IMG/VR virus record: IMGVR_UViG_2534681999_000017
DNA: 36,916 nucleotides
Strand: one strand, 5' to 3'
DNA from: a virus
Lineage: Duplodnaviria > Heunggongvirae > Uroviricota > Caudoviricetes
Positions 15,465 to 15,835 of this stretch are shown piece by piece. The first letter of the stretch is position 1; every line of letters starts with the position of its first letter. The translations under genes and the position numbers were made by a program. The notes beneath the pieces were generated by a model. The model was not told where the DNA came from and did no database searches. It was given only the letters and a program-made list of their open reading frames with translations.

Positions 15465-15835
15465 GCACGGGCCTGTTCCGCTTTGTTACCGGTCTTTTTC
15501 CGGGGAGCATCCTGTCCGGCTTCGGCTTCGGCTTCGGCTTCGGCTTCGGCTTCGGCTAAATCTGTACCGGCCACTGCATGAACCACACCCGCCACGCTCC
15601 CCGCATCATCAGCAGACGTCTGTAGTATTCGCACAGTGAGGCATGGCTCCTCCTCCAGTCGGGCAAGCTGCTCCGGGGTGACCTCAACCTGCTGACGTCC
15701 ACGCGTGAACAGGAACCCCGCACGACGAAACGCCGAACGACTGCAACGCACTTCTGCCAGCACCGTGACAGAATTGTCACCACTGACCTGAAGACCTGAA
15801 TCATCTGTTGCTGCCACAGTGTGATGTTCATTCAT
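15461..15835 (-). CDS. Head completion protein (Mu gp35 position) with C-terminal (Ala-Glu)n tract
   Basis: 124 aa ending …LAEAEAEAEAEAEAGQDAPRKKTGNKAEQARA. Confidence 0.55.
   Translation of the reverse strand: MNEHHTVAATDDSGLQVSGDNSVTVLAEVRCSRSAFRRAGFLFTRGRQQVEVTPEQLARLEEEPCLTVRILQTSADDAGSVAGVVHAVAGTDLAEAEAEAEAEAEAGQDAPRKKTGNKAEQARA
15518..15557. repeat. Perfect hexanucleotide tandem repeat (GGCTTC) x6 plus GGCT
   Basis: Read directly: GGCTTCGGCTTCGGCTTCGGCTTCGGCTTCGGCTTCGGCT; encodes the (AE)n tract on the minus strand. Confidence 0.95.

Follow-up and report, generated by a model that had tools for sequence, protein, structure and literature searches.

Several known systems couple short tandem repeats in coding sequence to strain-to-strain variation. 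The E. coli O157 MLVA loci O157-3, -9, -17, -19, -25, and -37 are 6-bp, in-frame VNTRs whose changes are attributed to slippage. These loci are reportedly due to Hyytia-Trees et al. in 2006. In the contingency loci of Haemophilus and Neisseria, repeats with non-triplet units, or repeats acting as promoter spacers, switch expression on and off. The Ser–Asp region of the Staphylococcus proteins ClfA and Sdr is a strain-variable dipeptide repeat that is used in typing, and experiments have shown that it acts as a spacer in ClfA.

The closest described system is the VNTR marker EHC-5. It belongs to the Japanese 17/18-locus MLVA scheme for EHEC O157, O26, and O111 (Izumiya et al. 2010, Microbiol Immunol 54:569), the primers of which are given in S5 Table of Hirai et al. 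2023 (PMC10062581). The strain table of the latter article lists, for O157, EHC-5 alleles of 2, 3, 5, 6, 7, and 9–14 repeats, together with allele 0 (no product) in most isolates. That EHC-5 is null in most O157 isolates fits a marker located on a prophage that is found in some strains. Two isolates in the same table, CEC18128 and CEC18136, share their alleles at all of the other 16 loci and possess 5 and 9 EHC-5 repeats, respectively. That article does not discuss the position of EHC-5 in a gp35 homolog of a Mu-like prophage, nor its (Ala–Glu)n product. On the phage side, a study from 2025 that examined Mu by in situ cryo-EM (PMC11915804) built models of gp34, gp29, gp36, gp37, and the proteins of the tail and baseplate; it was unable to resolve gp35 in the virion and says only that this protein “may” be connector-related. 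In the Mu-like siphophage JBD30 (PMC11445458), gp39, the next-numbered product after the capsid gene gp38, is a loosely bound decoration protein.

The DNA considered here, called the window, is a single stretch of 36,916 nucleotides of viral sequence. On its plus strand, positions 15518–15557 hold six GGCTTC units followed by GGCT. Tandem Repeats Finder, run on the whole window, reports this array (15517–15557; minus strand, in the sense of the gene) with a period of 6, 6.8 copies, 100% matches, and a score of 82. The remaining tandem arrays in the 36.9-kb window score no higher than 44 and have approximately two to three copies, and thus, the GGCTTC array is the strongest. A three-unit probe finds four in-register matches in the array and 0 in 100 dinucleotide-preserving shuffles. 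The array is real, correctly placed, and far above chance, which confirms the preliminary description of six perfect copies plus a partial seventh at these positions.

The same array can be recognized as EHC-5 from the published primers. Specifically, the EHC-5 reverse primer site CCGCTTTGTTACCGGTCTTTTTC lies at 15478–15500 (plus strand), and the forward primer site ATACTACAGACGTCTGCTGATGA lies at 15606–15628 (minus strand); both match S5 Table of PMC10062581 exactly. The primers converge around the array to give a 151-bp amplicon, and each is unique in the window, where 0 matches are expected. Judged by these primers, the array locus is the VNTR marker EHC-5, already known and in routine use in national surveillance, where the comparison of repeat number among isolates that the preliminary description proposed is regularly made. 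Literature on the GGCTTC/GAAGCC repeat in the context of O157 VNTRs and MLVA yielded nothing relevant, and the connection to EHC-5 comes solely via the primer table of PMC10062581. What is added here is the gene context of EHC-5 and the loss of a C-terminal domain in the lineage that carries it. A second marker in the same article, EHC-6, is likewise a presence/absence VNTR and is often, not always, null together with EHC-5 (PMC10062581 S2 Table). The EHC-6 primers are absent from the window, which places EHC-6 on a different element, probably one that is also mobile.

On the minus strand, which is the coding strand, the array reads (GCC GAA)6 GCC and specifies residues 94–106, (Ala–Glu)6–Ala, with (Ala–Glu)6 itself occupying residues 94–105. 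The protein context is ...GTDL-AEAEAEAEAEAE-A-GQDAPRKKTGNKAEQARA, also written ...TDL-AEAEAEAEAEAE-AGQDAPRKKTGNKAEQARA. The gene is an ORF of 124 codons plus stop (15461–15835, minus strand), and the ORF at this locus is labeled “HI1506-related protein” in RefSeq genomes. Its product matches the Pfam family FluMu_N (PF17891; 35.3 bits against a cut-off of 25.8, E 9.2e-9), PHROG 3622, and PDB entry 2OUT, the NMR structure of Haemophilus HI1506, that is, FluMu gp35 (sequence match, E 1.5e-4). The order gpT, gp35-like, gp36 is the same as in phage Mu, in which gp35 lies between T and gp36. Upstream is a Mu-type gpT major head protein of 315 residues (15879–16826, minus strand; PDB 9JOD, E 8.6e-143), which neighbors the Mu I protease/scaffold (16826–17950, minus strand). 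Downstream is a Mu-type gp36 head–tail adaptor of 139 residues (15045–15464, minus strand), the start of which overlaps the gp35-like stop in the sequence ATGA. Further neighbors are gp37, DUF2635, and the tail sheath, and the entire late operon lies on the minus strand. By homology and gene order, the label gp35-like is correct. The earlier proposal that the array is in frame and encodes (Ala–Glu)n within such a gene is upheld, as the ORF translation, PF17891, 2OUT, and synteny all agree.

The plus strand offers another product. An ORF at 15463–15639 (58 codons) is mechanically open and reads the array as (Arg–Leu)n. That this is the relevant product is scarcely credible: the ORF lies wholly within the well-supported minus-strand gene, in a late operon located entirely on that strand, has no family match, and is unannotated in all 229 genomes in which we located the array.

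The preliminary description also spoke of a head-completion gene and a virion protein, and this part is not supported: both labels are conjectures. PHROG 3622 carries the annotation “unknown function,” Mu gp35 escaped resolution in the virion, and the fold matches no decoration or connector protein. The PDB contains the Mu capsid (9JOD) and no Mu gp35 chain, leaving the HI1506 NMR structure (2OUT) as the only family structure there. A Foldseek search of the PDB returned 2OUT as its top match with a probability of 1.00, and below E 0.4, it returned 2OUT alone, with the JBD30 capsid entries 8RKC, 8RKN, and 8RKO among those searched; this was a single search with approximately 50 confidently modeled residues. 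Homology to a decoration protein (such as JBD30 gp39, with its beta-tadpole fold) was considered as a candidate and rejected, given that the PDB sequence search and Foldseek gave HI1506 alone.

The tract lies at a boundary within the protein. The folded N-terminal domain (FluMu_N) spans residues ~23–75 (15611–15769, minus strand) and comprises a three-stranded sheet and a helix. Specifically, in an AlphaFold2 model built from a 13-sequence alignment, residues 23–75 form a beta-hairpin, a helix, and a third strand with pLDDT values of 82–90. This model superseded a poor single-sequence model (pLDDT 55). It is confident only for residues 23–75; residues 76–124, containing the tract and the tail, have a pLDDT of ~40, and this segment is predicted to be disordered. 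The alignment of the gp35-like protein to the HI1506 structure ends where the tract begins. After the tract comes a basic C-terminal tail, GQDAPRKKTGNKAEQARA (residues 107–124; 15464–15517, minus strand), which, from the alignment and the AlphaFold2 model, is also predicted to be disordered. Two variants of this tail occur, one ending ...NKAEQARA and one, three residues longer, ending ...NKAKQAKKARA.

Relatives of the protein are built differently beyond this boundary. Alignment A1 shows that a conserved domain of ~50 residues, with the pattern NTRIRA...HFTAGG.PKV.AV...LG, follows “...DL” in Mu gp35, in its relatives from Salmonella and E. coli, and in the Edwardsiella protein P0084. The lineage represented by the window lacks this C-terminal domain and has (Ala–Glu)n and a Lys/Arg-rich tail of 18–21 residues in its place. 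The N-terminal domain of P0084 is 60% identical to that of the window protein. Among Pfam models, none matches the C-terminal domain of the Mu-type proteins, and NCBIfam has no family for either the window protein or Mu gp35. At the homologous point, Mu gp35 contains a single LAEAG, and it is plausible from this correspondence that a Mu-like LAEAG was the seed of the (Ala–Glu)n expansion. An exhaustive profile search recovered 471 family representatives at E≤1e-3; word-indexed searches reached close relatives only. Short-period repeats, including (AP)4 and (DG)5, are present in 4 of 144 family members inspected, at residues ~62–76, which is after the N-terminal domain when placed by residue number.

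The array travels on a mobile element. Similarity to prophages located elsewhere in the chromosome starts at window position 220 and ends at ~36390–36398, with host DNA outside. Thus, the window contains one whole Mu-like transposable prophage of ~36 kb (approximately 220–36395) with short host flanks. The gene content of a homolog, L016, includes MuA/MuB-like proteins, Gam, Mor, and Com/Mom. Copies of the prophage, 100.0% identical over 24.8 kb, reside at different chromosomal positions in O157:H7, O103, and other strains, and the locus is present at up to four places per genome. Identical prophages at differing sites suggest the recent spread of an active transposable phage, and the Mu-like carrier appears, from the genomes in which it is found, to circulate in Shiga-toxigenic and other E. 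coli. The EHC-5 locus also occurs within records of Stx-converting phages (LC727881.1, 53647–54362; LC727895.1, 26726–27459; the latter is locus L015). The records of Stx2c_JNE082796 and Stx1_JNE122137 annotate an “inserted Bacteriophage Mu-like phage” that carries the array locus. By these annotations, Stx prophages have received the Mu-like element by transposition. Elsewhere in the window, a 186-residue ORF at 2032–2592 (minus strand) resembles, in length and position, the “recombinase family protein” of L016, a gene that sits there between oppositely oriented tail-fiber and assembly genes. Going by the L016 annotation only, window positions ~2032–4619 look like a Gin-type invertible tail-fiber segment as in Mu.

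To what extent the array varies was assessed with a 701-bp query around it, searched against 5426 complete E. coli genomes. The query matched 229 of these, including O157:H7, O26, O103, O111, and O91 strains. Matches span 677–785 bp overall, and those with 100%-identical flanks span 731–785 bp. Thirteen loci were fetched, and the numbers of perfect units they contain are 2, 5, 8, 10, 11, 11, 13, 13, 14, 15, 16, 18, and 20, compared to 6 in the window; the ORF is intact in all 13 and in the window, with a length of 116–152 residues. Other spans, allowing for the tail variant that is longer by 9 bp, correspond to n = 1, 3, 4, 7, 9, and 12 as well. Copy number, read directly or deduced from spans, therefore ranges from 1 to 20. 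The expectation in the preliminary description that 6-bp, in-frame steps would generate an acidic tract of variable length is borne out by the 2–20 copies read in open frames in these loci and the window, and repeat number in related prophages, far from being invariant, varies.

This variation accrues quickly. Cattle isolates 118, 113, and 121 have 15, 14, and 13 units, respectively, and show 0 differences in 20,218 + 20,447 (40,665) flanking bases, which include host DNA (fimbrial genes). Among 21 sister isolates with the prophage at one site, spans give 13, 14, and 15 units in 9, 11, and 1 isolates, respectively. Likewise, the prophages that match the window at 100.0% identity over 24.8 kb, from various serotypes and positions, differ only at the array. 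Array length changes far faster than point substitution. In diverged relatives (~89% identity), the spans fit only one or two copies. The protein database contains n=1 forms (LAEAGQD) and also interrupted arrays with AG, AV, AS, AK, and AT units, including expanded (AG)n runs. Specifically, in P0005, P0012, P0013, P0015, and P0062, mutated units are expanded, as in AEAEAE-AGAGAGAG, with AGAGAGAG alone in P0062. Such expansion of the variant units themselves would mean that slippage acts on mutated units too. In one E. coli protein of 119 residues (P0073), the array is read as (Lys–Pro)n, ...WWFMQPAGTKPKPKPDEGYS..., and the normal frame is regained before RKKTGNK; a change of frame followed by a return points to two compensating frameshifts flanking the array, independent of repeat number.

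Low-complexity regions can mislead assemblers, and the length variation could, in principle, come from assembly or sequencing. Short-read assemblies do often break in the array: proteins annotated as “partial,” including P0058 (82 members), P0064 (35 members), and P0070, stop inside the (Ala–Glu)n tract. The consequence of such breaks at longer alleles is that draft genomes tend to understate copy number. An artefactual origin of the variation itself is nonetheless very improbable, because the variation is present in finished complete genomes, in exact 6-bp steps of perfect units, and because fragment sizing of PCR products in routine MLVA reveals it independently (PMC10062581).

We consider the array to be a hypermutable, in-frame hexanucleotide microsatellite, the VNTR EHC-5, in the gp35 homolog of a Mu-like prophage, with length changes that are slippage-driven, tolerated, and near-neutral, and we give this reading a probability of roughly 0.8. 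By analogy with the established behavior of VNTR loci, slipped-strand mispairing during replication would add or remove units while the prophage is copied with the host chromosome. Since the unit comprises two codons, slippage would merely stretch or shrink an (Ala–Glu)n spacer, and the gene would never be switched off. Thus, on/off phase variation is not expected, and variation of the array would not constitute a programmed switch. Length variants presumably persist because the linker and tail tolerate them, making the variants largely neutral or weakly selected. A hairpin-prone DNA or RNA repeat as the promoter of slippage was also considered and rejected: shuffled sequences fold better than either strand of the array (z of the array, +1.3 to +4.7), and thus, hairpin-driven instability is not indicated.

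Folding bears on one further possibility, namely, that repeat length matters at the RNA level by altering mRNA structure over the gp36 start, thereby tuning translational coupling between gp35 and gp36. The overlap of the gp35-like stop with the gp36 start is compatible with coupling, and in the minus-strand RNA, a 15-bp stem is predicted between ~15576–15590 and 15454–15468 (GGUGUGGUUCAUGCA / UGCAUGAAUUACGCC) that loops out the array and covers the gp36 AUG and the gp35-like stop. However, shuffled sequences reach comparable fold energies (z 0.17), and the repeat itself has less structure than its shuffles do. Both arms of the stem are coding, so their conservation is uninformative, and the relatives are too similar for covariation to be assessed. 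We regard an RNA-level role as very improbable.

Some features of the array do speak against neutrality: long arrays are wholly pure, net charge differs by up to ~−19 between alleles, and a conserved basic tail lies downstream. Purity, charge change, and the conserved tail could reflect a functional acidic spacer. A selected role for the tract can be formulated as follows. Its length would determine how far an acidic spacer extends, or how strongly it is charged, between the N-terminal domain and the basic tail of an accessory protein associated with the capsid or connector, and slippage at this in-frame contingency locus would diversify the stability, surface charge, or DNA contact of virions within the phage population. 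Consistent with such tuning, the reading frame and the basic tail are kept in all alleles, arrays of up to 20 units are perfectly pure, the family is widespread, as its 471 representatives attest, and the gene directly follows the major head gene, as gp39, the decoration protein, follows gp38 in JBD30 (PMC11445458). However, the family is annotated as “unknown function” (PHROG 3622), Mu gp35 is not among the proteins resolved in the virion, and in the Foldseek search, the model did not resemble JBD30 gp39, or any other decoration or connector protein, in fold. Moreover, copy number shifts among clonal isolates while the gene resides in a prophage. General Mu biology suggests that late genes are silent in lysogens. 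If this holds here, selection on the protein would be weak during this time. Finally, the behavior of the array is typical of neutral MLVA loci, and a high slippage rate alone would also be expected to yield purity. A selected tuning element is thus an unlikely reading. A more specific form is that (Ala–Glu)n length is non-neutral because the spacer places or shields the basic tail of an accessory protein of the Mu-family head or neck, in a lineage devoid of the C-terminal domain; we judge this decidedly unlikely. If it were true, slippage would endow a population of lysogens with particles of graded properties, and the array would be a tuning locus in a phage morphogenesis gene.

Under the favored reading, that of a near-neutral microsatellite, the chief value of the analysis is annotation: an anonymous surveillance marker is placed in the in-frame (Ala–Glu)n tract of a prophage gp35 homolog. 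The array reveals no new mechanism. The prophage context accounts for the behavior of EHC-5, specifically, null alleles when the prophage is absent, genomes with multiple copies, fast intraclonal change, and breaks in short-read assemblies. In addition, the naturally occurring alleles from n=1 to n=20, carried by prophages that are otherwise the same, would be a handy resource for studying the role of the gp35 family.

With respect to described systems, the array in the window and EHC-5 are the same locus at the DNA level and do not differ; the locus is polymorphic and absent from many strains. With the O157 MLVA loci, the array has in common short, perfect hexanucleotide repeats that gain or lose whole units among near-clonal isolates. 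The difference is that the EHC-5 array moves with a Mu-like prophage; some strains therefore have it and others do not, and a genome can hold more than one copy. Compared to Mu gp35 and HI1506, the window protein has a homologous N-terminal domain and is encoded in the shared slot between gpT and gp36, but the C-terminal domain of these proteins and of P0084 is replaced by (Ala–Glu)n and an 18-residue basic tail. Thus, by alignment A1 and by the low pLDDT (~40) at residues 76–124, the window protein does not have the two-domain architecture of HI1506 and Mu gp35. The Haemophilus and Neisseria phase-variation loci likewise contain slippage-prone, perfect short repeats in coding sequence, but the unit here is 6 nucleotides and the 13 fetched alleles and the window are all in frame, hence no switching occurs. 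Finally, like the Ser–Asp region of ClfA and Sdr, (Ala–Glu)n is a strain-variable dipeptide repeat used in typing; the spacer role, demonstrated for ClfA, is putative for (Ala–Glu)n.
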